From the NCBI GenBank assembly GCA_045222295.1, contig JBGUXP010000011.1, forward strand, positions 21,643 through 85,642: a stretch of 64,000 nucleotides of DNA. The letters are read 5' to 3'. Below the pieces are notes generated by a model that saw nothing but the letters and a program-made list of their open reading frames with translations, was not told the origin of the DNA and ran no database searches. The stretch's first letter is position 1. Every line of letters starts with the position of its first letter. This document shows positions 3,816 through 64,000 of the stretch, piece by piece. The translations under genes were made by a program, and so were the position numbers. Source of the DNA: Bacteroidales bacterium (lineage in GTDB: Bacteria > Bacteroidota > Bacteroidia > Bacteroidales > P3).

Positions 3816-5117
3816 ATGGAAAGGCATCAAATGCCATCCTCTTTTCACTATTCACTATCCACCCTTTTTCTTTTATTCTTTCTTTTTTTATCCGCGCACG
3901 CGCAGGCGAATTATATATTATTGCCAATGGACGAAGCCCAGAAGAACCACCTGAAAGCCTACGGCGTAGCCTATTGGAGCCTGCAGCGCGAGGTGGAAGT
4001 CACCTGGTTGCTCAACTATCGCGGAGGCACTTTCATGATGAAATATGCCGATGCTATCGAACGCGAATGTAAACTGAGGGGTGTAAGATGCGAGGTGATT
4101 GCCGACGGCCAAAGTAGCGCCATCCTCAGCCACATTGCCGACCCAGGCGTGAACATGGATGCCGTCAAGCTACAGAAAGCACCCAAGATTGCCGTCTACT
4201 CGCCGAAGAACAAATTGCCATGGGACGACGCCGTGACGCTTGTACTCACCTACGCAGAAATACCCTACGATGTGGTGTATGACGAGGAGGTGATGAGCGG
4301 CGTACTACCCACCTATGACTGGCTGCACCTGCACCACGAAGATTTCACCGGCCAATACGGCAAATTTTGGGCCAACTACCGCAGCCAGCAATGGTACATC
4401 GAGGATGTGCGGTTGCAAGAAGCCATGGCAAACAAGCTAGGCTTCAGCAAGGTCAGCCAACTGAAGCTGGCAGTAGCCAAGAAGATACGCGACTTTGTGA
4501 TGGGCGGCGGATTCCTCTTCGCCATGTGCTCGGCTCCTGACAGCTACGACGTGGCGCTAGCTGCCGAAGGGGTGGACATCTGCGACGTGATGTTCGACGG
4601 AGACCCCATGCAGCCCAACGCACAGGAGCTTCTGGATTACAGCAAATGTTTTGCCTTCAAAGACTTCCTCATCAGCCGGAACCCATCGGAATATGAGATT
4701 TCGACCATCGACATCGACGACCGCAGCCGCCAACGCCTAGTGAACGAGAAGAACGATTTCTTCGTACTCTTCGACTTCTCGGCCAAATGGGACTGGATTC
4801 CTACCATGCTGACACAAAACCACACTCGTGTGGTCCACGGCTTCATGGGACAGACAACGGCCTTCCGACGCGAATTGGTAAAGACCAGTTGCGTTATCCT
4901 GGGCGAGAACAAGGAGCTGAACGAGGTGCGCTACCTGCACGGAGACTACGGAAAAGGTACCTGGACCTTCCTCGGTGGGCACGACCCCGAAGACTACCGC
5001 CATTTCATCGGCGACCCTCCCACAGACCTCTCGCTCTACCCCAACTCTCCTGGATACCGACTGATTTTAAACAACATACTATTTCCTGCAGCAAAAAAAG
5101 AAAAACACAAAACATGA
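3816..5117 (+). CDS. Conserved secreted hypothetical protein (from memory, this family is often auto-annotated as asparagine synthetase B-like; function unknown)
   Basis: The ORF from 3723 overlaps tRNA-Leu, so the start is moved to MERHQMPSS.. ahead of a signal peptide (LFFLFLSAHAQA). First gene of a tightly packed 4-gene unit. Confidence 0.6.
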   Translation: MERHQMPSSFHYSLSTLFLLFFLFLSAHAQANYILLPMDEAQKNHLKAYGVAYWSLQREVEVTWLLNYRGGTFMMKYADAIERECKLRGVRCEVIADGQSSAILSHIADPGVNMDAVKLQKAPKIAVYSPKNKLPWDDAVTLVLTYAEIPYDVVYDEEVMSGVLPTYDWLHLHHEDFTGQYGKFWANYRSQQWYIEDVRLQEAMANKLGFSKVSQLKLAVAKKIRDFVMGGGFLFAMCSAPDSYDVALAAEGVDICDVMFDGDPMQPNAQELLDYSKCFAFKDFLISRNPSEYEISTIDIDDRSRQRLVNEKNDFFVLFDFSAKWDWIPTMLTQNHTRVVHGFMGQTTAFRRELVKTSCVILGENKELNEVRYLHGDYGKGTWTFLGGHDPEDYRHFIGDPPTDLSLYPNSPGYRLILNNILFPAAKKEKHKT

Positions 5118-6391
5118 CAAAGAGAATCATAATAGGACTAATAGTCGTAATGGGGTTCATTGGCAACATGGGCCATGCACAAAACGGCACATGGACTGTC
5201 TACAGCACCCGAACGAGTGATATCTGTGGCAACAACATATCAGCCCTTGCCGCTGACAGTCGTGGTGTATGGGCCGGAACCTACCAAGGACTATGCCGAC
5301 TCTCAGGACCTTCATGGCTGGACTACTCGATGTTCAACGAAAAGTTGAAAGACCAGTCGGTAAACTGTCTGATGATTGACAAGCGCGGAGTGCTGTGGAT
5401 TGGCACCGACGACTATGGTGTCATCGAATGGGACGGAACCAATTGGACCGAGCACAACGATGTCACACGACGACTGAAGATGAAATTTGTCAAAGAGATT
5501 GTCATAGACCAAGATGGCCTGACATGGATTGGTGTTACCCTCGGCGGCCTGGTGACCTACGACGGCAACGACTGGGAAAAATATACGCCCAACGACTGCG
5601 GCCTGCTGAGCGATTTCGTGCTTGATCTGGCCGTAGACCGTGCCAACCGTAAATGGATTACCACTAACGCCGGTGTCAGCGTCTTCAACGGCAACCGCTG
5701 GACAAGCTATACCACCGGAAACTCAGGCCTTCCCGACGACATCGTACCCGCCATCGCCATCGACAAGCAGAATGTCAAATGGTTCGGCACCCTCAGTGGT
5801 CTAGCCCGCTACGACGGCCAGCGATGGACTGTATGGAATACCAGCAACAGTCCGCTTCCCAGCGACCAAGTGAACGACATCACCATTGACAAGAACGGTC
5901 TGCTGTGGATAGCCACCAACCATGGTGCCGCCGTGTTTGACGGGATAGACAACTGGGTGGCTTTCACCCCTAAAAACAGCCAAATTCCCGAAGGAAACAT
6001 CTACAAGGTAGCCGTCGACAATAACGGAACCGTGTGGTTCGGTAACGACTCAAAAGGACTAGCCAAGCTCAGCGGTTTCCAGATGCCAAGCCGCGAGGTA
6101 GCCGAAAGTGTCCCTCCGGATAACCGTATAGTCAAGGAGGTTGATGCCCCTGGCCCCGGCGACCAGCATGTGCGCATCAACCCTCACCTTGACGAGGGAT
6201 ATATCACCGTCTCCATTGAGAGTCCATTAGCCAACATCACTTTCATCAATAGCAACGGCAAAGTGGTAAAACGGGTGGAAAACTACACCAACAACCAACA
6301 TATCAAAATCAACCGCCTTCCCAAAGGCATGTATACAGTCTCGGTGAAAACCGAACGTGGCGAAAGAAAAATTAAATTCAATCTGAAATAA
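5114..6391 (+). CDS. Secreted beta-propeller protein (two-component-regulator propeller repeats) with a T9SS C-terminal sorting domain
   Basis: ATGA overlap with the upstream gene; signal peptide; repeated W.GT..GL...DG..W units; C-terminal about 80-aa CTD (GMYTVSVKTERGERKIKFNLK). Confidence 0.7.
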   Translation: MTKRIIIGLIVVMGFIGNMGHAQNGTWTVYSTRTSDICGNNISALAADSRGVWAGTYQGLCRLSGPSWLDYSMFNEKLKDQSVNCLMIDKRGVLWIGTDDYGVIEWDGTNWTEHNDVTRRLKMKFVKEIVIDQDGLTWIGVTLGGLVTYDGNDWEKYTPNDCGLLSDFVLDLAVDRANRKWITTNAGVSVFNGNRWTSYTTGNSGLPDDIVPAIAIDKQNVKWFGTLSGLARYDGQRWTVWNTSNSPLPSDQVNDITIDKNGLLWIATNHGAAVFDGIDNWVAFTPKNSQIPEGNIYKVAVDNNGTVWFGNDSKGLAKLSGFQMPSREVAESVPPDNRIVKEVDAPGPGDQHVRINPHLDEGYITVSIESPLANITFINSNGKVVKRVENYTNNQHIKINRLPKGMYTVSVKTERGERKIKFNLK

Positions 6392-13179: not shown

Positions 13180-16100
13180 TTATTTGAAGTATTCCACGCC
13201 GCTCTCAAAGATGCGCTGGTCGTCGTTTCCAAAGATGTTCATGGCGCTGCCTTTACTTCTACGCTCCGAGTGCCCCATCTTGCCGAGGACACGACCGTCG
13301 GGACTGGTAATACCTTCGATGGCCATGTAGGATCCATTCATGTTGAACTCTTCATCCATGGTAGGCACACCGTCGAAGTTGCAGTACTGGGTGGCTACCT
13401 GACCGTTCTTGAAGAGACGATCGAGCCATTCCTGCGTGGCTACGAAACGGCCCTCGCCGTGCGAGATGGGGATGGTGTAAACACCACCCAACTCGGCACC
13501 GCGCAGCCAGGGGCTGAGGTTGGAGGTGATGCGGGTATAGGCCATCTTGCTTTGGTGACGACCGATGGTATTGAAGGTCAGCGTGGGGGCATCGGCGGCC
13601 TGCGAACGAATCTCACCGTAGGGGACGAGACCCAGTTTCACCAAGGCCTGGAAGCCGTTGCAGATACCCAGCATGAGGCCGTCGCGCTTATTGAGGAGTT
13701 CCATGACCGCATCGGCAATCTTGGCGTTGCGGAAGACGCTGGTGATGAACTTCGCGGAGCCTTCGGGCTCGTCGCCGGCGCTGAAGCCACCGGGTATCAT
13801 GACGATCTGGCTGTTGTTGATGGCCTTGACGTAGGCCTCGACGCTTTCGCGTATCTGCTGGCCGTTCTGGTTGCGGAAGACGATAATCTCGCTCTCGGCA
13901 CCGGCGCGGTTGAAGGCGCGGGCACTGTCGTACTCACAGTTGGTGCCAGGGAAGGCTGGGATGAAGACATGAGGCTTGGCTACCTTGTGGGAGCAGAGGT
14001 GGATATCTTTATAATTAACGGGGTTAATGGGTTGAATGGGTTGAATGGGCGAAGTGCTGCGAGTGGGAAAGACACTTTCGAGGGGTTTCTGCCAAGCAGC
14101 GAGAGCCTCGTTGAGGGCAATCTTCTCTCCACAGCACTCGAAGGCATCCTTGCCGGTCACTTCGCCTATCTCCTTGCAGCGGAACGGTAAGCCAGTGGCA
14201 TTCTCCACCTCGACAACAATCCAGCCGTAGTGTTTGGCGGAAAGATCTTGGCTGGTGGTGAGTTTGACACCGAGATTGTTGCCGAAGGCCATCTTGCTGA
14301 CAGCCTCGATAATGCCACCGAATCCGAGGGCATAAGCACTCTTCACCTGACCGGCCTCAATGGCTTTGCGCAGGGCAGCGTACTGGTTGAGGGCATCCTC
14401 GTAGTCGGGCATGCCGAATTCTTTCTCCTTGATGTCGAGGAGGACGAGTTTATTGCCGGCCTTCTTGAGCTCAGGGGTGACGACATGCTGGAGGTCGCTG
14501 ATGCCCACGGCGAAGGAGCAGAGGGTCGGTGGCACGTCGATATCGTTGAAGGTGCCGGACATGGAGTCTTTTCCGCCGATTGCGGGCAGCTTAAGGCCCA
14601 TCTGTGCATTGTAGGCACCGAGGAGGGCAGCGAAAGGTTCACCCCAACGATAGGGGTCGTTTCCGAGTTTCTTGAAATATTCCTGGAAAGTAAGGCGCAC
14701 ACGGCTGGCATCGCCACCGGCGGCGGCAATCTTAGCCACCGAACTCAGCACGGCGTATACGGCACCGTGGAAGGGGCTCCACGAGGTCTGGTAGGGGTCC
14801 ATGCCGTAGGACATAATGGTAACGGTGTCGCACTTGCCATCAAGCAGCGGCAACTTGCCAATCATGCTCTGGGTAGGCGTGAGCTGGTACTTGCCACCGA
14901 AGGGCATCACCACGCTGCCAGCACCGATACTGCTGTCAAACATCTCGACCAAGCCTTGCTGTGAGCAGACGTTGAGGTCGGAGAGAGTGGAGAGCCACTG
15001 CTCTTTGATGGGTTTGGTGGGTTGAGTGGGTTTAATGGACTGTGTGGGCATCGTCACCTTGACGGTGGTCTCCTGATGGGCGCCGTTGGTGTCGATGAAG
15101 CGGCGGCTGAGGTTGACAATCTCCTTGCCACGCCAGCTTATGACCATGCGGGGTTCCTTGGTGACGGTAGCCACCACAGTAGCTTCGAGGTTCTCTTCGT
15201 CGGCATACTTCAGCATGAGGTCGACATCCTTGGGGTCGACAACGACGGCCATACGCTCTTGGCTCTCGCTGATGGCCAACTCGGTACCATCGAGACCAGC
15301 ATACTTTTTGGGCACACGGTCGAGGTTAATCTGTAGACCGTCAGCCAACTCGCCAATGGCGACGCTAACACCACCGGCACCGAAGTCATTGCATTTCTTG
15401 ATGATATGGGAGACCTCCTCGCGGCGGAAGAGGCGTTGAATCTTGCGCTCGGTGGGGGCATTGCCCTTCTGCACCTCGGCACCGCAAGTGGTCAGGCTCT
15501 TGGTGGTGTGGCTCTTGGAGGCACCCGTGGCGCCTCCTATTCCGTCACGGCCCGTGCGGCCACCCAGCAGGATGATGATGTCACCAGGGTCGGAGGTAAG
15601 ACGCTGCACAGCACGACGAGGTGCGGCGGCGATGACAGCACCAATCTCCATACGCTTGGCCACATAGTTGGGGTGGTATATCTCGTTCACCAAGCCAGTG
15701 GCCAGACCAATCTGGTTGCCGTAGGAGCTGTAGCCGTGGGCGGCGGTGGTGACAATCTTACGCTGGGGCAACTTGCCGGCGAGGGTCTCGTTAAGAGGCT
15801 TTGTGGGGTCGGCAGCACCGGTGACGCGCATGGCCTGGTAGACGTAGGTGCGGCCCGAGAGTGGGTCTCGGATGCAGCCACCGAGGCAGGTGGCGGCACC
15901 ACCGAAAGGCTCAATCTCCGTCGGGTGGTTGTGGGTCTCGTTCTTGAAGTTGATGAGCCACTCCTCCTTGTTGCCGTCGATGACGACGGGTACCACGATG
16001 GAGCAGGCGTTGATCTCGTCGCTGGGCTCTTGGTCATCGAGGATGCCGGCCTTCTTGAGACGTTTGGCGGCAAGGGTTCCGATGTCCATCAGGCAGACGA

Positions 16101-21055: not shown

Positions 21056-21664
21056 CTATTCATCGCGTTTGGTCTTGAACCACTCGACGAACTTGGGCAG
21101 GTCGTCGAGTGGCTGGAAGCCGGCTTTGAAAGGCTCGGCGGGTACAGGGACAGTCTCCATGTAGCCAATGAGGGTGGCACAATCGAACTCACCCATTAGA
21201 GCCTCGAGCGTCACATAGACTCCCACCTGGAAGTCCTCATCCTGACGCTGGCCGTCTTCAACGGCGATGCGGAGACCCAGCATTTCGGGTTCCTCCTCAC
21301 ATTCCAGCTGCTGAAAATACATCTTTCGGGTATCAAAGATCATCTTGTCGAAGCGCACCTTCAGCTCGGTGCCCATGGGTTGTTTGAAAGCCACAAACTC
21401 CCACCAATCGAGGTCGGGAGCGTTGTCGACAAGCTCCACGACATAGCGGAAGAGGTCGGTATCGCCCTCGGCGGTGAAAGTGAGGGTACGGCCGTTGGCT
21501 GTGGCATCACCTATCTCGTAGGTGAGGCCGTCACAGTATTTGGTCAGTTGGTACTGCAGGGCGTTCTCCAACTGCTCGCGCTGCTTGTCCTCAAGGTCAC
21601 CCATGGAGACCAGTTCTTCGTTATGGTCAACAAACCACTTCCAAAAATTCTCTACTTTTTCCAT
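21056..21664 (-). CDS. Hypothetical acidic cytoplasmic protein
   Basis: 202-aa ORF with native-like GC and its own terminator; no motif recognised. Confidence 0.6.
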   Translation of the reverse strand: MEKVENFWKWFVDHNEELVSMGDLEDKQREQLENALQYQLTKYCDGLTYEIGDATANGRTLTFTAEGDTDLFRYVVELVDNAPDLDWWEFVAFKQPMGTELKVRFDKMIFDTRKMYFQQLECEEEPEMLGLRIAVEDGQRQDEDFQVGVYVTLEALMGEFDCATLIGYMETVPVPAEPFKAGFQPLDDLPKFVEWFKTKRDE

Positions 21665-21676
21665 ATTCTTTTTTTT

Positions 21677-21740
21677 CTCAATCAGAACTAAAAGAACAAA
21701 AAGAGATTTTTCTGATAGTTCTGATGGTTCTGATTGGGGA
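21677..21740. repeat. Intergenic repeat, family B, copy 1 (TCAATCAGAACTAAAAGAAC core plus 3 x TTCTGATNG)
   Basis: Shares a 20-nt core with 43268-43289. CAATCAGAAC/GTTCTGATTG are inverted ends. A 9-nt tandem repeat lies at 21710-21736. Confidence 0.7.
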
Positions 21741-29662: not shown

Positions 29663-29730
29663 TTAATATGTTGTTCTTATGTTGTTCTTTAGATTAAATC
29701 ATAAGAACAACATAAGAACAACATTATATC
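29663..29730. repeat. Intergenic palindromic repeat, family D, copy 1
   Basis: (ATGTTGTTCTT)x2, a 13-nt loop, then (AAGAACAACAT)x2: 22-nt perfect arms. Near-identical copy at 51170-51237. Confidence 0.85.
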
Positions 29731-43240: not shown

Positions 43241-43340
43241 TCTCAACAGAACTATCATTTTTTTATTTCAATCAGAACTAAAAGAACTATCAGAACCAAT
43301 CGTCTAATTCTTTTTGTTCTTTTCGTTCTAATTGAGATTA
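43241..43340. repeat. Intergenic repeat, family B, copy 2 (inverted-repeat form)
   Basis: TCAATCAGAACTAAAAGAAC ... GTTCTTTTCGTTCTAATTGAGA are inverted arms. The 20-nt core is identical to 21679-21698. Confidence 0.7.
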
Positions 43341-45494: not shown

Positions 45495-45762
45495 CCGCGC
45501 ATCGTTGCAAAACCGTGTTGCAGAGCTGCAAAATGGCCGCGCACAGGTGCGGAGGGCATTACACGGCTGAAAAACGACCGCGCATATATGCGGAGCGGAT
45601 TACACGGCTGCAAATTGACCTCGCATATATGCGGGGCGCGTTGCACGGCTGTTTCATGGTTGCGCACCGGTGCGCGGTGGCGTTGCAGTGCTGTCAATGC
45701 TCCCCGCACAGGTGCGGGGAGCATTACATGAGCCGTTTCGTGGCCTCGCAGCGGTGCGGAGG
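45495..45762. repeat. Tandem array of 7 degenerate 41-42-nt units, each with a GC-rich hairpin
   Basis: Hairpin cores (CCGCGCA-N4-TGCGG-like) start at 45495, 45537, 45578, 45619, 45660, 45702 and 45744. The inter-hairpin segment is semi-conserved (GCATTACACGGCTG...). Confidence 0.8.
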
Positions 45763-46974
45763 CTACTTCTTCCAGCGCTTAAGCTGGGGGAAGTATTGCA
45801 GGAGCTGCTGGCGGTACTCGTCGGCGGTGAGGTGCTGGTTGGTGTTTTTGTTGAACTCGTCGACGAACTGGACGCAGCAGTCGACCATCTGCTCCATGGT
45901 GCACTCCTGGGTGAAGTGGCCGTCGGCGAAGCAGTACTTGCAGTAGTCGGGATTGTCGCTCACCACCTCGTCGGTCAGCGGCATGCCGCAGCTCTGACAG
46001 TAGCGCTGTTTGGGGGCGCCGGGCTTGCGCTGCAGGACGGCGTAGACCTTAGCCATGATGTCGGCGGCGCGGAGGTGGTAGTTGGTGAGCATCTCGTCGG
46101 GGGTGCCGCTCTCGCCGAAGCGGTCGTCGACGGCGACGTACTCCATGGGCGTGGGGCAGCGGAGGGCAAGCGTCTGGGCGATGCTGTCGCCGAGGCCGCC
46201 GTTGAAGAGGTGCTCCTCGCAGGTGACGACGGCGCCGGTCTTGCGGGCGCTGGCCACGACGGCCTCCACGTCGAGCGGCTTGATGGTGTGGATGTTGATG
46301 ACTTCGCAGCTGATGCCTACCTTCTCGAGCATCTCGGCGGCCTGCAGGGCTTCCCACACGAGGTGGCCGCAGGCGAAGAGGGTCACGTCGCGACCCTCGC
46401 TCAGCAGCTGGGCTTTGCCGATTTCGAACTTCTCGCCTTCCGGCAGGAAGCAGGGCATCTTGGAGCGGCCGAGGCGGAGGTAGACGGGACCGACGTGCTC
46501 GGCGGCGGCCAGCGTGGCGGCCTTGGCCTGGTTGTAGTCGGCAGGCACCAGCACGGTCATGTTGGGCAGCACCTTCATGAGGGCGATGTCCTCCATGGTC
46601 TGGTGCGTGGCGCCGTCCTCACCGAGGGAGATGCCGGCGTGCGAGCCGCAGATTTTCACGTTCTTGTTGCTGTAGCACACCACCTGGCGTATCTGGTCGT
46701 AGACGCGGCCGGTGACGAACTCGGCGAAGCCCCCGATGAAGGGCACCTTGCCGCAGAGCGAGAGGCCGGCGGCGATGCCGACCATATTGGCCTCGGCGAT
46801 GCCGCACTGGATGAAGCGCTCGGGGAACTCCTTGGCGAAGCCGTCCATCTTGACGCTGCCTTTCACGTCGGCGCTCAGGGCGACGACATTCTCATTCTTG
46901 CGGCCAGCCTCTACCAGGCCCTCGCCCATGCCGGCGCGCAACTCTTTGCTTGATTTGATTTCGTAGTGGGTCAT
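45763..46974 (-). CDS. Transketolase C-terminal-section protein (Pyr-binding plus C-terminal domains) fused to a C-terminal zinc-ribbon domain
   Basis: FIQCGIAEANMVG and GEDGATHQ motifs. The extra about 85 aa carries CQSCGMPL...CKYC. Confidence 0.85.
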   Translation of the reverse strand: MTHYEIKSSKELRAGMGEGLVEAGRKNENVVALSADVKGSVKMDGFAKEFPERFIQCGIAEANMVGIAAGLSLCGKVPFIGGFAEFVTGRVYDQIRQVVCYSNKNVKICGSHAGISLGEDGATHQTMEDIALMKVLPNMTVLVPADYNQAKAATLAAAEHVGPVYLRLGRSKMPCFLPEGEKFEIGKAQLLSEGRDVTLFACGHLVWEALQAAEMLEKVGISCEVINIHTIKPLDVEAVVASARKTGAVVTCEEHLFNGGLGDSIAQTLALRCPTPMEYVAVDDRFGESGTPDEMLTNYHLRAADIMAKVYAVLQRKPGAPKQRYCQSCGMPLTDEVVSDNPDYCKYCFADGHFTQECTMEQMVDCCVQFVDEFNKNTNQHLTADEYRQQLLQYFPQLKRWKK

Positions 46975-47012
46975 TGTTATTTGTTTTTGATTATTATTGT
47001 CTATTTTTTATT

Positions 47013-47121
47013 GGGGTTAATGGGCTTAATGGGTTTAATGGGCGCTGACGCATGATGGCTATTGCCCAAATCGCCCATTAGACCCATTAAACCCATTTTG
47101 CCCATTCTGCCCATTAAACCC
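47013..47121. repeat. Inverted pair of 9-nt repeat tracts (AATGGGNTT family)
   Basis: Left arm GGGGTTAATGGGCTTAATGGGTTTAATGGGCG at 47013-47044 is intergenic. The right arm at 47072-47121 is its imperfect reverse complement and encodes the C-terminal GFNGQNGQNGFNGSNGR tail of the next gene. Confidence 0.8.
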
Positions 47122-47673
47122 ATGACTATCTCTGTAGGCTTTCCTCGCCCTGTACATCTCCTCTTTTATCCCTCCGTTCTCGAGGAAATTCCTCTTCTGC
47201 CACTCGATAAGTCCTTTTATCAGCACGTCGCACTGGTGTATCAGCGTGATGGCGATGTTGGCGATTGTCTCGTCCGAGCGGTCTTTTATCTTCTCGCGGT
47301 ACACTGCCGAGTCGAGGTGCCGCTTGCAGAACTCCCGCGTCTGGACGCAGCGTGGGTCATTGTACGGCCACTGCTCCAGACCTCTCACACGAAGGTAGTC
47401 CTCATAGTCCAGCAGAAGCTCGTGCAGCGAGGCACGGTTGACGTTGGTCAGCTTCAGCTCCATCTCCTTCGAGGTGATGCCGTCGATGTTGCCCTCGGCA
47501 AGGTTCTGCTTGCCGCTCCGTGCCGCCTGCACCATCTGGTCTATCGTGCGGTCTCCTTTCACCAAGAACTTATTGGCAAAATAATAGGTCACGTCGTAGA
47601 CACACTCCGCTTTCTGGAATGCCTTCAACGTCCTGTAGTTGTTATCTTGCCGTATAAAGTCCCTGTCGGTCAT
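47059..47673 (-). CDS. Four-helix-bundle (23S rRNA IVS / Avd-like) family protein with suffix domain and repeat-encoded tail
   Basis: N-terminal ..YRTLKAFQKAECVYDVTYYF..K.DRTIDQMVQAARSGKQNLAEG pattern. Confidence 0.7.
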   Translation of the reverse strand: MTDRDFIRQDNNYRTLKAFQKAECVYDVTYYFANKFLVKGDRTIDQMVQAARSGKQNLAEGNIDGITSKEMELKLTNVNRASLHELLLDYEDYLRVRGLEQWPYNDPRCVQTREFCKRHLDSAVYREKIKDRSDETIANIAITLIHQCDVLIKGLIEWQKRNFLENGGIKEEMYRARKAYRDSHGFNGQNGQNGFNGSNGRFGQ

Positions 47674-47676
47674 TGG

Positions 47677-48336
47677 TTATTTCTCTATAACAATCATTCG
47701 GTCTTTGGCTGTGGTCGTCGGGGCGGTCACGACAGAGAAGCATCCGTCGTCGTCCCTGAAGTCGGAGTGCTCGCGGAGGTAGTCGGCATAGAACGAGGTG
47801 CGAACTACAAACCAGCTACTGTCTGACTCAGGCGAGGGTTTCTCGCGTGTGACAGGAATATAGTTGTTGGTGTCTACCGCCAGGCAGAAGGGGACGCCCT
47901 CCATACGGCTGCGGCTGTCGATGGGGTGAGCTGTGCTGAAGAGGCTCACCACCTCCTTGTACATCCCTTTCTCATAAGGCAGATTGCAATGGTGAATCAG
48001 CTCGCGAGGGATGCCCATGTCCATCATATCGCCGACCACCTCTTCCCAATGGGCGGAGTCAACGATGTCCTCGACGATGAGGTAGTAGATGCGCCACAGC
48101 GAGGTGTCCATTGCGTTGACAGCCGCCTTCGTTTCCTCGTTCATCTGGCGGCATCCATAGCAGTAGGGACTGGTGAAGATGAGGGCGCGGTAGTGTGTGG
48201 TGTCCTGAGCGATGGCAGTCAGTTCCTCCATTCCGAAAGAGCCTTCCGGTACATACAGAGGTGCCTTGGTTTCGTGCTTGCAGCCTACAAGGAGCAGCAT
48301 GGTTGTCATTATAAAAAAGATTCTTTTCATGCTCAA
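47677..48336 (-). CDS. Lipoprotein, possibly thioredoxin-like (CYGC)
   Basis: Lipobox LLVGC; FTSPYCYGC motif; 4-nt overlap with the upstream vWA gene. Confidence 0.5.
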   Translation of the reverse strand: MSMKRIFFIMTTMLLLVGCKHETKAPLYVPEGSFGMEELTAIAQDTTHYRALIFTSPYCYGCRQMNEETKAAVNAMDTSLWRIYYLIVEDIVDSAHWEEVVGDMMDMGIPRELIHHCNLPYEKGMYKEVVSLFSTAHPIDSRSRMEGVPFCLAVDTNNYIPVTREKPSPESDSSWFVVRTSFYADYLREHSDFRDDDGCFSVVTAPTTTAKDRMIVIEK

Positions 48337-51169: not shown

Positions 51170-51237
51170 TTAATATGTTGTTCTTATGTTGTTCTTTAGA
51201 TTTATTCATAAGAACAACATAAGAACAACATACTATC
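51170..51237. repeat. Intergenic palindromic repeat, family D, copy 2
   Basis: Arms identical to 29663-29730; only the loop and flanks differ. Confidence 0.85.
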
Positions 51238-52490: not shown

Positions 52491-54170
52491 ATGCGAATCC
52501 TGCTCATTACACCGCCACTCACGCAGTTGAACACCCCCTATCCTGCTACAGCCTACCTCAAGGGGTACTACGCCACACAGGGGCATACAGTACGACAGGT
52601 CGACCTCGGAATCGAGGTGGTCGACCGCGTGCTGTCGCGGGAGTTCCTTGCGGGCATCGGCCTCGTGGAACAGGCGCGGCTGATAGAACCCGTCAAGCGG
52701 TTCCTCCGTGGGCAGGACGACACACTGGGCCCTCGAATTGCCAATAGGAGTTTGCTGCCGGAAGGCAATCGTTTCGAGCAATTGGATGAGGACAATATGG
52801 AATGGTCCTTCGGCGTCAGCGGCACCACCGACAAGGCGCAGCACCTGGCCACATTATTTATAGAGGACTTCGCCGACCACATCCGCGAGCACGTCGATCC
52901 CCACTTCGACCTCGTGCGCTACGCCGAGTACCTCAGCAACGACGCCCCCACCTTCGACCCCCTCTACGCCGAGCTGCAGCAGGAGCCGTCGGCCATCGAC
53001 CGACTGATGCTCGGCCTCCTCGAAGAGTGTGTGTCGGGGTTTGCCCCCGACCGCGTTTGTCTCACGGTCCCTTTCCCCGGCTGCCTGTATGGGGCTTTGC
53101 GTTGCGGCCAATGGCTCAAGGCCCACACCACCGCCACCGTTGAGATAGGCGGTGGATTTCCCAACACCGAATGGCGCCAGCTGAGTGACCAGCGTATCTA
53201 TGAGTTCTGCGACGAGGTGGTGATTGACGGGTGCAAAGAGGCTGACCAATACTGCCCCGATTTCAGCGATTTACCATTGGACAAATACCTCTCGCTCACA
53301 GAGATGACCAACCCCATGCACCGCCTGTGGAACCAGGGTCGGTGGAACAAGATGGTGATGGCCCACGGCTGCTACTGGCACCGCTGCGCCTTCTGCGACA
53401 CCTCGCTCGACTATATCGGCAACTACCGCGCCCCCAAGGCCGCCACCGTGGTCGACCACATGGAGCGCGTCATGGCACAGACGGGCCGCACGGGCTTCCA
53501 CTTCGTCGACGAGGCGTTGCCGCCCAAGCTGCTGCGCGAGGTGGCCGAAGAGATACTGCGGCGCGGCCTCGCCGTCAGTTTCTGGGGCAACATACGCTTC
53601 GAGAAAGCCTACACCGCCGAGCTTTGCGACCTGCTGGCCGAGGCCGGCATGGTGGCTGTGAGCGGTGGCTTGGAGGTGGCCTCCGACCGCCTGCTGAAAC
53701 TCATCGACAAGGGCGTCACCATCCAGCAGACCGTCGATGCCTGCCGCCACCTGCGCGACGCCGGCATCATGGTGCACACCTACCTCATGTACGGCTTCCC
53801 CACCGAGACGCTCCAGGAGACCGTCGACGCCCTCGAGATCGTCCGCCGCATGTTCGACGAAGGCATCGTCCAAAGCGCCTTCTGGCACCGCTATGCCATG
53901 ACTTGCCACTCGCCTTCTGGCCTCAACCCCGAAGCCTACGGCGCCCGCCGCACCACCCTCGAGCCGAACCCCTTCTGCAACAACGAGGTCGACTGGGAGC
54001 CGGTGGATGGGGCCAATGGGGCTAATGGGTTTACTGGGCATTTCCCTTATGATATCGATGCCGTCGGTGCCGCCCTGCGGCTGGCCACCTATAACTACAT
54101 GAACGGGCTGGGTTTAGACCAGCCCGTCCGCAGTTGGTTCCCCATACGGGTACCGAAACCATCAAAATAA
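52491..54170 (+). CDS. B12-binding-domain radical SAM protein
   Basis: N-terminal Rossmann-like MRILLITPP; radical SAM CxxxCxxC as CYWHRCAFC; starts 3 nt after the upstream stop. Confidence 0.85.
   Translation: MRILLITPPLTQLNTPYPATAYLKGYYATQGHTVRQVDLGIEVVDRVLSREFLAGIGLVEQARLIEPVKRFLRGQDDTLGPRIANRSLLPEGNRFEQLDEDNMEWSFGVSGTTDKAQHLATLFIEDFADHIREHVDPHFDLVRYAEYLSNDAPTFDPLYAELQQEPSAIDRLMLGLLEECVSGFAPDRVCLTVPFPGCLYGALRCGQWLKAHTTATVEIGGGFPNTEWRQLSDQRIYEFCDEVVIDGCKEADQYCPDFSDLPLDKYLSLTEMTNPMHRLWNQGRWNKMVMAHGCYWHRCAFCDTSLDYIGNYRAPKAATVVDHMERVMAQTGRTGFHFVDEALPPKLLREVAEEILRRGLAVSFWGNIRFEKAYTAELCDLLAEAGMVAVSGGLEVASDRLLKLIDKGVTIQQTVDACRHLRDAGIMVHTYLMYGFPTETLQETVDALEIVRRMFDEGIVQSAFWHRYAMTCHSPSGLNPEAYGARRTTLEPNPFCNNEVDWEPVDGANGANGFTGHFPYDIDAVGAALRLATYNYMNGLGLDQPVRSWFPIRVPKPSK
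54003..54038. repeat. 9-nt tandem repeat (NNNAATGGG x4) in-frame in the radical SAM gene
   Basis: GTGGATGGG GCCAATGGG GCTAATGGG TTTACTGGG. Encodes VDGANGANGFTG. Confidence 0.75.
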
Positions 54171-54205: not shown

Positions 54206-54682
54206 CTATCGAGCGATATCCTCGTCGTCTTTGGGTTCTCCATGGCGGAGATTCTTGATGTAGAGTTCAATACTCTTCAACCCCCAGTTGATGAGGATGA
54301 TGACAGCGACAGCCACGATGGCCTCGCGCCACATGCCATAGCCGCAGAGGCAACCCACGGCGGCTGAGCACCAGATGGTGGCAGCCGAGGAAAGGCCGTG
54401 GATGGTAAGTCCGTTCTTCATGATGACACCAGCACCAAGGAATCCAATACCAGTAACAACCTGAGATAGAACACGGAGATTGTCATTATTCACAGGGCCA
54501 CCAGCAGCAGTGGCACCCATAATAACACTTTCGCTTATAAGAATAAATATACAGGCACCCACGGCCACAAGTGAATTGGTAGTGAGCCCAGCCTGACGCT
54601 GCTTAAGTTCGCGCTGAGTTCCGATGATGATGCCGGCGATGAGGGCGCAAGCAAGGCGGAAAATAAAGACTTCGATGGGCAT
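54206..54682 (-). CDS. MgtC/SapB family membrane protein
   Basis: 158 aa; RLACALIAGIIIGTQRE..AGLTTN signature. Confidence 0.85.
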   Translation of the reverse strand: MPIEVFIFRLACALIAGIIIGTQRELKQRQAGLTTNSLVAVGACIFILISESVIMGATAAGGPVNNDNLRVLSQVVTGIGFLGAGVIMKNGLTIHGLSSAATIWCSAAVGCLCGYGMWREAIVAVAVIILINWGLKSIELYIKNLRHGEPKDDEDIAR

Positions 54683-54718
54683 GATGGGGTGAATGGGTTT
54701 AATTGGTTAACTGGCTTT
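54683..54718. repeat. 9-nt tandem repeat tract (AATGGGTTT family) between the MgtC-family gene and rsmI
   Basis: GATGGGGTG AATGGGTTT AATTGGTTA ACTGGCTTT; spans the rsmI stop codon. Confidence 0.65.
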
Positions 54719-56839: not shown

Positions 56840-58594
56840 CTACAACTGTTTAATTACGATATCACCATCGTACCAACTCTTGATATGATTATATAAAGCC
56901 TCGGCCTTAGTGCGCGTCGATGCACTGCCCATACTTACATAATACATATCGTTCTTCTCGATGATGTAAGCATCGCAACCCAACTCATGCAGGCGAGCAG
57001 ACATCCTGACCGCAGTAGCCTTGTTGAGGTAGAAGCCGGCGATGATATCAAAACCCTGCTTACTATCTTTTCCCATATAGACCGACAATTGTTCCTCCTT
57101 ATCGTTTCTCTTATTCAAGGCAGAACGCTCGGATTCCTTCACCTGCTGCACTTCAGCGGCAGTATACTGCGGAGCACTGGGCTGAAGATCCAGCTCATCT
57201 ACCAACTGCTCAAGGATACCATTCAAAAGGGTTGTATTCATGAGTTCACCCTGAACTGTGTGACGCACAACGTTGGCGTAGTAGCGTTTCAGCCAAGGCT
57301 CGGCATGGTTGTACATATAATCGTCGTAAGGGACGAAACGCTGCACAGCGAAACGTGGGCCAAGCAACTGTCCCATCCGTTCTTCAATGTATTGACGCAC
57401 ACGATCCATCATTGGAACCCTGGCGGCACTATAGTTGCATGAAGTCAAGAAATTGCTGATATATTCCGTCATATTGGCACATACAATATCGCTGTTGAGC
57501 GCCATTTCACGGTCAGTGTATTCTATCAGGTCGGGATTGTAAGTCAAAGCATTGTCGGCTGGTACATCAAGATGGTTGGCATTCTTGACCACTTCGGCGG
57601 CAGGCGCTTCTTTAACACGCTGGCCCTGGTACCAATATTTCATATAAAGAAATGCCAATGCGGCGACAACCAGCAGAAGCAGTAATATCCACAGCACTCT
57701 CTTGAAACCACGTCCTTTCTTCTTGCCTTCCTTCTTCTTGCAGGCAGCCTCTTTCTTGGCAGCCTCACGTTCCTCAAGTTTATTGCGAAGCTTGCGCTCT
57801 TTCTCGGTCTTGGCCTCCAACTTGATACGTTCTTTCTCTGCCTTAGCCTCCGCTTTGAGGCGCTCTTTCTCAGCCTTGGCTTCCGCCTTACGGTGAGCCT
57901 TTGTTTCCTTCGGAAGTTCCTCTAACTGCTTGATGCTCTCTTTCCACTCCTCTGACACAGTCTGGTTTTCCATTACAGGCTCGGGCTCAGGTTCTGCAGT
58001 GGGGGCAGGAGTCGGTTCGGGTTCAGGTTCGGACTCTGGCATAGGTTCGGGCACGGGTTCAGGCTCTGGTGCAGGTGCAGGCTCAGGCACGGGTTGGGGT
58101 TCAGGCACCGGCTCAGCATCTACCGTTTTCACTTCAGGCTCGGCCTCAAACTGAGCAAACGGATCCTCACTATTACTATGGTCGTAGGTCTTCACCTCCT
58201 CCAAGGGTGTCTCATTGCCGTTGCCAGCATCGATGACCACGCCTTCGGCCATCTCAAAACCATACTTATCTCCTCTTTGGGTGATAGCGCCCAAGTTCTC
58301 CAGACGATGTTCACCGGTAAGTTTCAGTTTATCCTTGAGGGCATCGAGGTAATTGCGCCACATCTGACGGGCGATGTCCTCACTCACACAATCGCGTTGT
58401 GCGATAATTTTGACAATACTCTCGTCGCCAGTGGTAGCCTCGCTGTAAACGATACTGCGGGTGGCCGGATAGTAGATTCTCGTCACCGGATCATGGTGGG
58501 GCGCCTGCTCCACGCTGTCAAATCTTCCGATTCCGGGCAGCTCTACCATCTGTCCGTTTTGCAACAATTCAACGATTAAATCGGTTATATTCAT
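56840..58594 (-). CDS. HU-like N-terminal domain / SPOR C-terminal domain protein with a Pro/Glu-rich linker and one TM segment
   Basis: N-terminal LPGIGRF HU-CCDC81-like pattern; PEPxP low-complexity region; [10 protein letters not shown] repeats; C-terminal SPOR-like GFDIIAGFY...YYVSMG. Confidence 0.7.
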
Positions 58595-63369: not shown

Positions 63370-64000
63370 ATGTTGGATAGTTCCCAAATAAAACAGTGGG
63401 CTCTCGAGGTGGGCTTCGATGCCTGCGGCGTAGCCCGCGCCGATGCACTCACCGACGAGGAATATCCTCTGCGAGAGTGGCTTGCCCGCGGATGGCATGG
63501 AGACCTAAGCTACATGGAGCGCAACATCGAGAAGCGTATGGATCCGCGGCTGCTCGTCGAGGGTGCCAAAAGTGTCATCTGTGTGGTGAGTGCCTACCCT
63601 CCCCCCGTTCCCTCCCCACGAGAGGAGTGGTTAGAAGATCCAGGGTGGGACGGCGTTGCCGCCTACGCCCGCACCCGCGAATACCATAGGGATATCAAGC
63701 AAATGCTCTTCGCCTTGCGGGAGAAACTGGGTATCGAAGGGAAATGCTGTTGCGACACCGTGCCCATCAGCGACAAGCACTGGGCCACCCGCGCCGGACT
63801 CGGCTGGATTGGCCGCCACACCCTCCTCGTCACCCCCCGATGGGGTTCATGGGTCAACCTTGGCGAAATCGTCACCACAGAAGAATGTTCTGAATACTCC
63901 GATTATTCTGAATACTCCGAATACTCTGATTTCTGCGCCAAGTGCGGCCTTTGCGTCGCCGCCTGCCCCAACCACGCCCTCGCCTCCGACGGTCCCCCAA
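63370..64000 (+). CDS. queG: Epoxyqueuosine reductase QueG (5' part; continues past the window)
   Basis: Open from the ATG at 63370 to the window end; ..AAYAR.REYH.., GLGWIGRHTLL, ferredoxin CAKCGLCVAACP. It is absent from the ORF track because no stop lies in the window. Confidence 0.88.
   Translation, partial: MLDSSQIKQWALEVGFDACGVARADALTDEEYPLREWLARGWHGDLSYMERNIEKRMDPRLLVEGAKSVICVVSAYPPPVPSPREEWLEDPGWDGVAAYARTREYHRDIKQMLFALREKLGIEGKCCCDTVPISDKHWATRAGLGWIGRHTLLVTPRWGSWVNLGEIVTTEECSEYSDYSEYSEYSDFCAKCGLCVAACPNHALASDGPP
63889..63930. repeat. 9-nt tandem repeat (TCYGAWTAY x4.7) in-frame in queG
   Basis: TCTGAATAC TCCGATTAT TCTGAATAC TCCGAATAC TCTGAT. Encodes SEYSDYSEYSEYSD immediately before the 4Fe-4S Cys motif. 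Confidence 0.8.

Follow-up and report, generated by a model that had tools for sequence, protein, structure and literature searches.

Why should the last codons of a small bacterial gene, and the spacer that separates it from its neighbor, be written in tandem copies of one nine-base unit, first in one orientation and then in the other? The question is posed by a locus at 47 kb in a 64,000-nt stretch of a Bacteroidales genome ("the window" in all that follows: assembly GCA_045222295.1, contig JBGUXP010000011.1, forward-strand positions 21,643 to 85,642), at which a gene for a four-helix-bundle protein is followed by a gene for the C-terminal half of a transketolase. The answer that we favor, with a probability of roughly 0.6, is that this inverted pair of tracts belongs, as a single locus, to a class of long-unit simple-sequence repeats (SSRs) that runs through a whole lineage, the Prevotella-like Bacteroidales of rumen and gut. 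Units of 7, 9 or 11 nt follow one another head to tail in the arrays of this class, and often two arrays converge and are able to pair. Whole units are won or lost from one close relative to the next, and at orthologous sites entire arrays come and go; the arrays are confined to sequence in which change is tolerated (gene spacers, C-terminal tails and inter-domain linkers); and at the 47-kb locus a foldable stem that encloses the stop codon of the four-helix-bundle gene has been retained.

The stem-loop at 47 kb

On the plus strand, 47013-47044 reads GGGGTTAATGGGCTTAATGGGTTTAATGGGCG; 27 nt further on, 47072-47121 reads CGCCCATTAGACCCATTAAACCCATTTTGCCCATTCTGCCCATTAAACCC, and this second tract is at the same time the 3' end of the open reading frame (ORF) 47059-47673 of the minus strand, the translation of which ends in GFNGQNGQNGFNGSNGRFGQ before its stop (DSHGFNGQNGQNGFNGSNGRFGQ). 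In these particulars (the pair, its coordinates, its sequences and its coding C-terminus) the original prediction, made from the letters of the window alone, was exact. The locus is made up of the following parts:

47074..47124, minus strand: coding arm, (NNNAATGGG) x ~6 on the sense strand, encoding the C-terminal tail HGFNGQNGQNGFNGSNG
47044..47073, minus strand: loop or imperfect apical region, holding the TAG stop (47059-47061) of the four-helix-bundle gene
47008..47043, minus strand: downstream (intergenic) arm, sense strand CGCCCATTAAACCCATTAAGCCCATTAACCCCAAT, ~3.5 units of CCCATTNNN
46975..47007, minus strand: A-rich unstructured leader, AAUAAAAAAUAGACAAUAAUAAUCAAAAACAAAUAACA-AUG, between the hairpin and the downstream ATG, without a U-run

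Both arms are detected by Tandem Repeats Finder (TRF) at period 9, with 4.0 and 5.6 copies, and an inverted-repeat search of 46900-47900 gives arms of 33-36 nt that are 83-85% complementary. The long stem-loop that had been suggested for them is borne out by RNA fold prediction: sense-strand RNA of 46990-47135 has a predicted folding energy of -57 kcal/mol (z = -6.58), and 0/200 shuffles fold equally well. The further suggestion, that this stem-loop serves as a terminator, fails. A stem is present, but its loop or apical region is 27-40 nt long and the terminator scan at 47 kb reported nothing; a canonical intrinsic terminator is to be rejected because what comes after the stem on the transcript (3' flank CCCCAAUAAAAAAUAGACAAUAAUAAU) is the A-rich leader, not a U-run. 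An Rfam search at 47 kb returned no family, only a sub-threshold look-alike of microRNA hairpins.

Unit turnover in the orthologues of the hairpin

Periodic arms pair in several registers, which makes classical covariation of the stem infeasible; its conservation was judged instead by the fold energy of each orthologue. The 120 closest homologues of the four-helix protein (90-96% identity, 196-212 aa) carry tails of 15-31 residues past a conserved AYR motif, mostly in steps of three, with 3-8 xNG units. Eight distinct orthologous loci all have the coding arm (4-8 units), the stop codon inside the loop, and the downstream arm (1-4 units, of the form CGCCCATT(AAACCCAT[TA])nAACCCC); a foldable stem is always present, at -21 to -63 kcal/mol, with z of -6 to -9 in most. 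Tail lengths that change by whole three-residue units between close homologues, together with unit changes in both DNA arms, establish the variable-number tandem repeat (VNTR) behavior that had been proposed as a check. The hairpin layout is kept in the more distant genomes L036 and L117 also (the ORF of L036 continues through the two arms: NGFNG...PIKPNQPIQPIK), and its presence there and in all of the orthologues implies that the stem-loop is old at this locus.

How might an array be at once so restless and so faithful to its partner? We suppose that local 9-mers such as ATGCCCATC act as seeds, from which slipped-strand mispairing adds and removes units, and that fold-back template switching would create the inverted partner and maintain its complementarity. 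The arms could then resize separately while pairing persists, because a periodic stem tolerates register shifts. Any role would probably be that of an intercistronic RNA stem-loop comparable to the REPs (repetitive extragenic palindromes) of enterobacteria: protection of the upstream 3' end, processing, or insulation.

The same unit elsewhere in the window

The motif AATGGGN3AATGGG matches the window 9 times, on both strands, where 0.04 matches are expected, and 0/100 shuffles reach 9. These matches fall at three sites (14 kb, 47 kb and 54.0 kb). The whole 64 kb holds six arrays, spread over five sites, two of which are degenerate and were detected by a looser scan and TRF. When all hexamers of the window are ranked at spacing 9 by number of loci, AATGGG/CCCATT comes first; and spacing 9, with 95 exact hexamer recurrences, leads all spacings from 6 to 15 (spacings 8, 10 and 13 give 21-25). 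A chance origin of the period-9 motif is rejected by the shuffles and by the spacing counts, and the dispersal of the motif, far beyond chance, is as it had been described. So are the remaining sites, two in purL, one in a radical-SAM gene and one at the junction of rsmI and the MgtC gene:

14017..14049, minus strand: purL in-frame tract, aa 953-962 PIQPIQPINP, in the linker before the GATase domain; TRF 3.3 copies
15004..15033, minus strand: degenerate purL in-frame tract, aa 625-634 KPTQPTKPIK, in register with conserved ATGCCCACA (MPT)
54006..54038, plus strand: in-frame tract DGANGANGFTG of a B12/radical-SAM gene, an insertion relative to relatives
54674..54706, minus strand: tract at the TP_methylase (rsmI-like)/MgtC junction, TAA CCAATTAAA CCCATTCAC CCCATCATG CCCATCGAA

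Coding copies read as N-G-x or P-I-x according to orientation, as claimed: they use the stop-free registers AAT-GGG-NNN (NGx) or CCC-ATT-NNN (PIx). The accompanying claim, that the 9-mer holds a TAA stop in one frame of each strand and that every coding copy avoids it, survives in its second half; TAA is present only in units with a T-rich spacer (TTAATGGG). Nothing marks 47013-47121 as the source of the other copies, and the designation of that site as a "hub" is accordingly dropped.

Turnover at the other sites

If the tracts were ancient, invariant linkers, related genomes should carry them at the same positions. They do not: at the three gene sites relatives carry other families of units, or no tract.

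purL (its closest relative is named Prevotella sp.) is the most instructive case. In relatives at 66-89% identity both linkers stay in position and the tripeptide-periodic tracts that fill them differ. Linker 1 reads KDLKDTKDFRD, QASQVSQSSQ, PEVPEKPEKPE, PIKPIQPTK, KNEELRIKNEE or QNTPNNQNTP, its length constant and its content changing across orthologues; linker 2 reads PINPIKSINP, PITPIAPIAP or DLKDLKDSKDLKDFKD. In homologues at 61% identity or less the linkers are non-periodic. The arrays are in register with flanking conserved codons: ATGCCCACA (MPT) for CCCAY units, and AAAGACCTC (KDL) for the KDL units of linker 1. In six orthologues (L143, P0274, P0278, P0283, P0284 and P0287) the linker 2 insert is ~20 aa longer and reads as both arms of a hairpin (e.g., VESEKSKVE...LSTFNFQLSTS); in L143 it is a complete in-frame hairpin of 7-nt units (GGAAAGC... 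/ CTTTCAA x4).

The rsmI/mgtC junction was compared in 80 metagenomic relatives of the MgtC gene (66-94% identity). Its commonest state is an overlap of the two genes, the spacer being absent. Apart from the window, L146 (3 units) and L148 (1-2 units) alone have AATGGG/CCCATT tracts there, and two others show degenerate traces; other lineages have arrays of CTCATAACT (reaching 8 or more units), AACCTTAAA or TTTTTCATT. The array of the window is in exact 9-nt register with mgtC's own start, ATGCCCATC, and decays with distance from it, a combination that looks like the signature of local amplification. Since arrays are thus in register with local seeds (the mgtC start, the purL codons), local amplification explains much. 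The case that had been made against simple local slippage, from the recurrence of one motif at unlinked loci and on both strands, is weakened to that extent.

In relatives the radical-SAM site reads DWEP(G)-HFPYD, and the tract is absent. (A separate observation: in L147, with one copy, and L149, with three, an in-frame GC-rich palindrome, CCCCTCCCTGCAGGGAGGGG..., takes the position of the AATGGG tract, each copy adding PCREGMKDGKQQPSPPYREG; a similar palindrome flanks the array in L034.)

Distribution in the Bacteroidales

Species genomes were scanned for (AATGGGN3)x3, yielding at least 120 loci, with 123 arrays among the matches listed. One confounder has to be removed at the outset. Among these matches, 49 of the 123 arrays are the GGM tails of GroEL (GGAATGGGY...ATGATGTAA after LTTEAMIA), and they explain all of the spread across phyla; the apparent cross-phylum conservation of the motif is an artefact. 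The DNA of the GroEL C-terminal (GGM)n tail, GGAATGGGYGGAATGGGY, fits AATGGGN3, but its frame (G-G-M), function and spread differ. The copies of the window, in unrelated genes, have NGx or PIx readings, and the tail is rejected as a relative.

Also among the matches listed, at least 35 loci are in Bacteroidales (Prevotellaceae, Muribaculaceae, Alistipes, Tidjanibacter). Their 37 arrays include 18 that lie in no ORF of at least 90 aa and about 10 that are in frame in long ORFs, as NGx or PIx. Under a strict 15-mer criterion an inverted partner is clear for four of them, and several more appear to have one when the flanks are read. The longest coding copy seen is a 28-unit AATGGG-type array in L120 (a metagenome-assembled Bacteroidaceae genome, RGIG6733; ~5034-5293), which forms an 83-aa NGx insert in a 1146-aa ORF.

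The Bacteroidales loci also hold many arrays other than those by which they were ascertained, with periods 9/18/27 and 7/14/21; recurring families among these are TAAGGACTT, TTCTGATTA, TTCGGAGTA and GGGTTTAAA. At MgtC-anchored loci periods of 7, 11 and 14 equal 9 in frequency, from which it follows that the generating process is not specific for 9 nt. Inside ORFs, survival is limited to arrays of 9-nt units and to hairpins with a total length divisible by 3. (Another locus should be recorded here: L067, Bacteroidales RUG153, has at 6018-6226 a 24-unit GGGTTTAAA array with an inverted AACCTCTTT partner, and further arrays of 27-nt period lie within 1.3 kb, in a very repeat-dense intergenic region.)

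Relation to known repeats

The closest documented analogue is the GGGAATC heptamer of Xanthomonas, likewise a system of dispersed head-to-tail arrays with inverted pairs and poor conservation of sites. A genome contains ~186 arrays of 2-26 heterogeneous units with a conserved G-rich core, and 70-75 convergent inverted pairs able to form stem-loops; most arrays occupy intergenic DNA immediately 3' of an ORF, with co-directional genes on the two sides, and sister species do not conserve them at the same genes (Rehm et al. 2015, PMC4692102). The arrays described here differ in unit length (9 nt, not 7), in host (Bacteroidales), in core (AATGGG) and in the coexistence of several unrelated unit families. 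It is because the unit is 9 nt rather than 7 that they persist in ORFs, as tripeptide repeats.

Cyanobacterial short tandemly repeated repetitive (STRR) heptamers and the TAACTGA repeats of Beggiatoaceae, Cyanobacteria and some Bacteroidetes (MacGregor 2015, PMC4679880), together with Mrazek's "long SSRs", make up the broader class. Like the STRR and TAACTGA families, the AATGGG family is a lineage-restricted excess of tandem 5-11-nt intergenic units in strain-specific arrays. Unlike it, TAACTGA repeats form mostly direct arrays, seldom inverted ones, immediately upstream of start codons, and in-frame coding copies are not a feature of either of those two families. The marks of the long-unit class are nevertheless all found: a tandem unit of 5-11 nt with a core, dispersal beyond chance, and a varying number of units at sites that are not conserved. 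The AATGGG arrays are, in short, the nine-base, coding-compatible form of an already known kind of bacterial long-unit repeat. In the literature searched there is no description of 9-nt arrays in Bacteroidales, Bacteroides and Prevotella included.

Two further comparisons are with palindromic elements. REP sequences and their composites, the bacterial interspersed mosaic elements (BIMEs) of enterobacteria, are imperfect palindromes, intercistronic or 3', between co-directional genes, and can fold into RNA stem-loops, which on their own are not terminators; REPs are conserved palindromes of 20-40 nt, of fixed length, non-periodic, strictly extragenic and tied to RAYT transposases. The 47-kb pair resembles them in being palindromic and intercistronic between co-directional genes; AATGGG arrays differ in being unit-variable, periodic and present in ORFs also (RAYT genes were not searched for). 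Rickettsia palindromic elements (RPEs) are in-frame palindromic repeats that add peptide segments to essential proteins, in discrete lengths of 100-150 bp and with a consensus sequence. In-frame occupancy, and the both-arm hairpins of purL orthologues, are points of likeness; AATGGG tracts, by contrast, vary by the unit from 9 nt upward, without discrete length or consensus.

Other hairpins of the window

The 47-kb hairpin has company in the window. Two further inverted pairs of period-9 tracts, of a different family, share the opening TCAATCAGAACTAAAAGAAC:

21681..21740, strand unassigned: CAGAAC/GTTCTG period-9 inverted tracts, first copy, between co-directional MurB and a 202-aa ORF
43266..43335, strand unassigned: CAGAAC/GTTCTG period-9 inverted tracts, second copy, between a co-directional LOG-like gene and a 267-aa ORF

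All three intergenic hairpins between co-directional genes (47, 21.7 and 43.3 kb) have the layout stop - hairpin - A-rich leader - ATG, and a U-run follows none of them on the sense strand. A third family is represented at 29664-29727 and 51171-51234 by near-identical 62-nt hairpins that differ mainly in the loop; each arm consists of two tandem 11-nt units (ATGTTGTTCTT / AAGAACAACAT). One lies ~210 nt upstream of a phosphofructokinase gene, the other ~80 nt upstream of an unassigned 391-aa ORF, and the pair is a dispersed element or a shared operator. Copies of the CAGAAC and 62-nt families were not found in 227 fetched loci.

What slippage leaves unexplained

Several facts weigh against the explanation that we favor. 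1) Slippage alone does not account for the recurrence of a few unit families across unlinked loci and across genomes. 2) Nor does it account for the termini, GGGGTT...AATGGGCG, shared by a purL array and an intergenic one: 14013-14051 and the arm 47006-47044 are identical at 29/32 positions, termini included. 3) The near-identical hairpins with 11-nt tandem arms at 29664 and 51171 imply that some such hairpins are copied as units. These keep a templated or mobile origin alive, if unlikely, and the shared termini salvage that much of the original argument for a templated process.

Competing explanations

The competitor that survives best, which we regard as possible on the evidence though doubtful, makes the inverted pair primarily a selected RNA signal of the four-helix/transketolase-C transcript (a terminator, an RNase III/E processing site or a stabilizer of the mRNA), the repeat structure being merely the way in which the stem is built. 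The hairpin is, after all, found in 8/8 orthologues and in L036 and L117 despite unit turnover; the 3/3 intergenic hairpins of the window share one layout; and GGGAATC arrays in Xanthomonas lie on average 28 nt past the upstream ORF (PMC4692102). The missing U-run, the long loop, the empty terminator scan and the absence of an Rfam family speak against such a signal, as does the stem of L018, which is down to ~13 bp (-21 kcal/mol, z = -1.7); and arrays also occur singly, and within essential ORFs, where termination would be harmful.

Unlikely, and yet to be taken seriously, is a small non-autonomous mobile or templated element, resembling an RPE, a REP or a MITE (a transposable element that is miniature and has inverted repeats), of which the 47-kb, purL and radical-SAM tracts would be separate insertions. 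RPEs are a precedent for in-frame palindromic insertion, and both hairpin arms are in frame in some purL orthologues, at the cost of ~20 extra aa. The 29/32 identity with its shared termini, the tracts at the radical-SAM site and the rsmI/mgtC junction, which beside those of relatives are clean insertions, and the twin 62-nt tandem-arm hairpins are what such an element would leave behind. A MITE has a fixed length, however, and these arrays form a continuum from 1 to 28 units. Neither target-site duplications nor terminal repeats beyond the array were seen (by repeat search in 46900-47900 and by eye at the other four sites). Edge units decay gradually, arrays are in register with conserved host codons, and linker 1 of purL changes in content but not in length; beside the arrays no transposase or RAYT gene was seen, though none was looked for.

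A more radical version, which we consider quite improbable, has a clade-specific templating process write hairpin-forming short-period arrays, drawn from a small repertoire of unit families, wherever the DNA of Prevotellaceae is unconstrained, and even in frame into essential enzymes such as PurL. Fold-back or ectopic template-switch repair, or a retroelement-like activity, would be candidates for the process, and the abundant Avd/S23p-like four-helix-bundle proteins, whose genes often end in arrays, are conceivable helpers. Were it true, it would amount to an RPE-like selfish or mutational system, a continual source of fresh RNA stem-loops and of fresh linkers and tails in proteins.

The G-rich strand, (GGG-N6)n, e.g., d(GGGGTTAATGGGCTTAATGGGTTTAATGGG), may also form G-quadruplexes, and the arrays might be regulatory elements of that kind, like the heptamers of Xanthomonas and Nostoc. 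Exactly four tracts of G3-4, with loops of 5-6 nt, are present in each of three arrays (14017, 47010 and 54006), which makes the minimal G3+N1-7 motif; in the coding arm G tracts number six or seven; and most Xanthomonas arrays have four units too (PMC4692102). That quadruplexes are what the arrays are for is nonetheless improbable: co-occurring families (CAGAAC, CTCATAACT, AAGGACTTT, GAATACTCC) have the same anatomy without G-tracts, and duplex formation with the inverted partner would compete. Least probable is convergence at the protein level, with NGx/PIx repeats selected as flexible tails or linkers and the likeness of their DNA a by-product: coding copies do lie in linkers and tails, do avoid stop-containing frames and do include a Gly-X-Y-like tail (weak Collagen match, E = 0.056), but half of the arrays are non-coding, which largely refutes it, the downstream arm is intergenic, one DNA reads NGx or PIx by orientation, and close relatives fill the same purL linker with chemically unrelated tracts (KDL, NEE, QAS).

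The host gene and its neighbors

The gene at 47 kb and its neighbor are:

47059..47673, minus strand: gene for a four-helix-bundle suffix-domain protein, 204 aa, a remote relative of 23S rRNA-IVS / S23p-type proteins
45763..46974, minus strand: transketolase C-terminal-half gene with a zinc ribbon, 84 nt downstream of the four-helix-bundle ORF

The 204-aa product belongs to NCBIfam TIGR04258 (76.6 bits against a cutoff of 40); its match to PF05635 is sub-threshold (E = 0.004, 17.8 bits against 33.8), and a profile of the four-helix family matches PDB 2gsc (XCC0516) at E = 3.7e-4. The four-helix-bundle/transketolase-C pair is kept in all of the related contigs fetched, even where upstream neighbors differ, and a locus identical to that at 47 kb is present in GCA_045221095.1. 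A collagen-like reading of the Gly-X-Asn tail was considered and rejected, on account of the shortness of the tail and the non-trimeric nature of the family as well as the weakness of the match. So was the notion that arrays are exclusive to genes of this kind, since such a gene adjoins 3 of the at least 120 public loci with the pattern.

Some side observations belong here. Among 94 diverse four-helix-bundle-suffix proteins (P0121-P0270), 18 have tripeptide-periodic tails, a count made in this family alone; their units are xNG, PTx, PIx, SDR, GSS and EDG, and several tails read through both hairpin arms. Just downstream of the transketolase-C gene, at 45525-45651, a 41-nt unit is repeated 3.1 times (81% matches), and each unit contains a GC-rich palindrome (CGCGCATATATGCGG / GCGCACAGGTGCG). 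At 63883-63929 there is an in-frame tract of period 9/18 (GAATACTCY; peptide SEYSDYSEYSEYSDF) in an ORF that extends past the edge of the window; the same family (CAGAATACT CGGAATAAT) also fills purL linker 1 in the relative L143. A 33-nt unit, x2.9 (76% matches) at 57794-57889, in ORF 56840-58594 of the minus strand, makes an 11-residue protein repeat.

What the arrays may mean for their hosts

Long-unit arrays are a practical matter for anyone who works with these genomes: they yield spurious "tripeptide-repeat" ORFs (MGL, PIx, KDL and similar) and break short-read assemblies; they could also serve as VNTR markers for strain typing. If what has been described here is general, the arrays would constitute a major, so far undescribed source of rapid indel variation in the Prevotellaceae of rumen and gut: protein tails and linkers, those of PurL included, would be resized in frame, intergenic spacers made or erased, and long RNA/DNA stem-loops built between cistrons. 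Because the period is 9 nt, the class can be looked on as a natural experiment in which the dynamics of non-coding repeats spill over into coding DNA.

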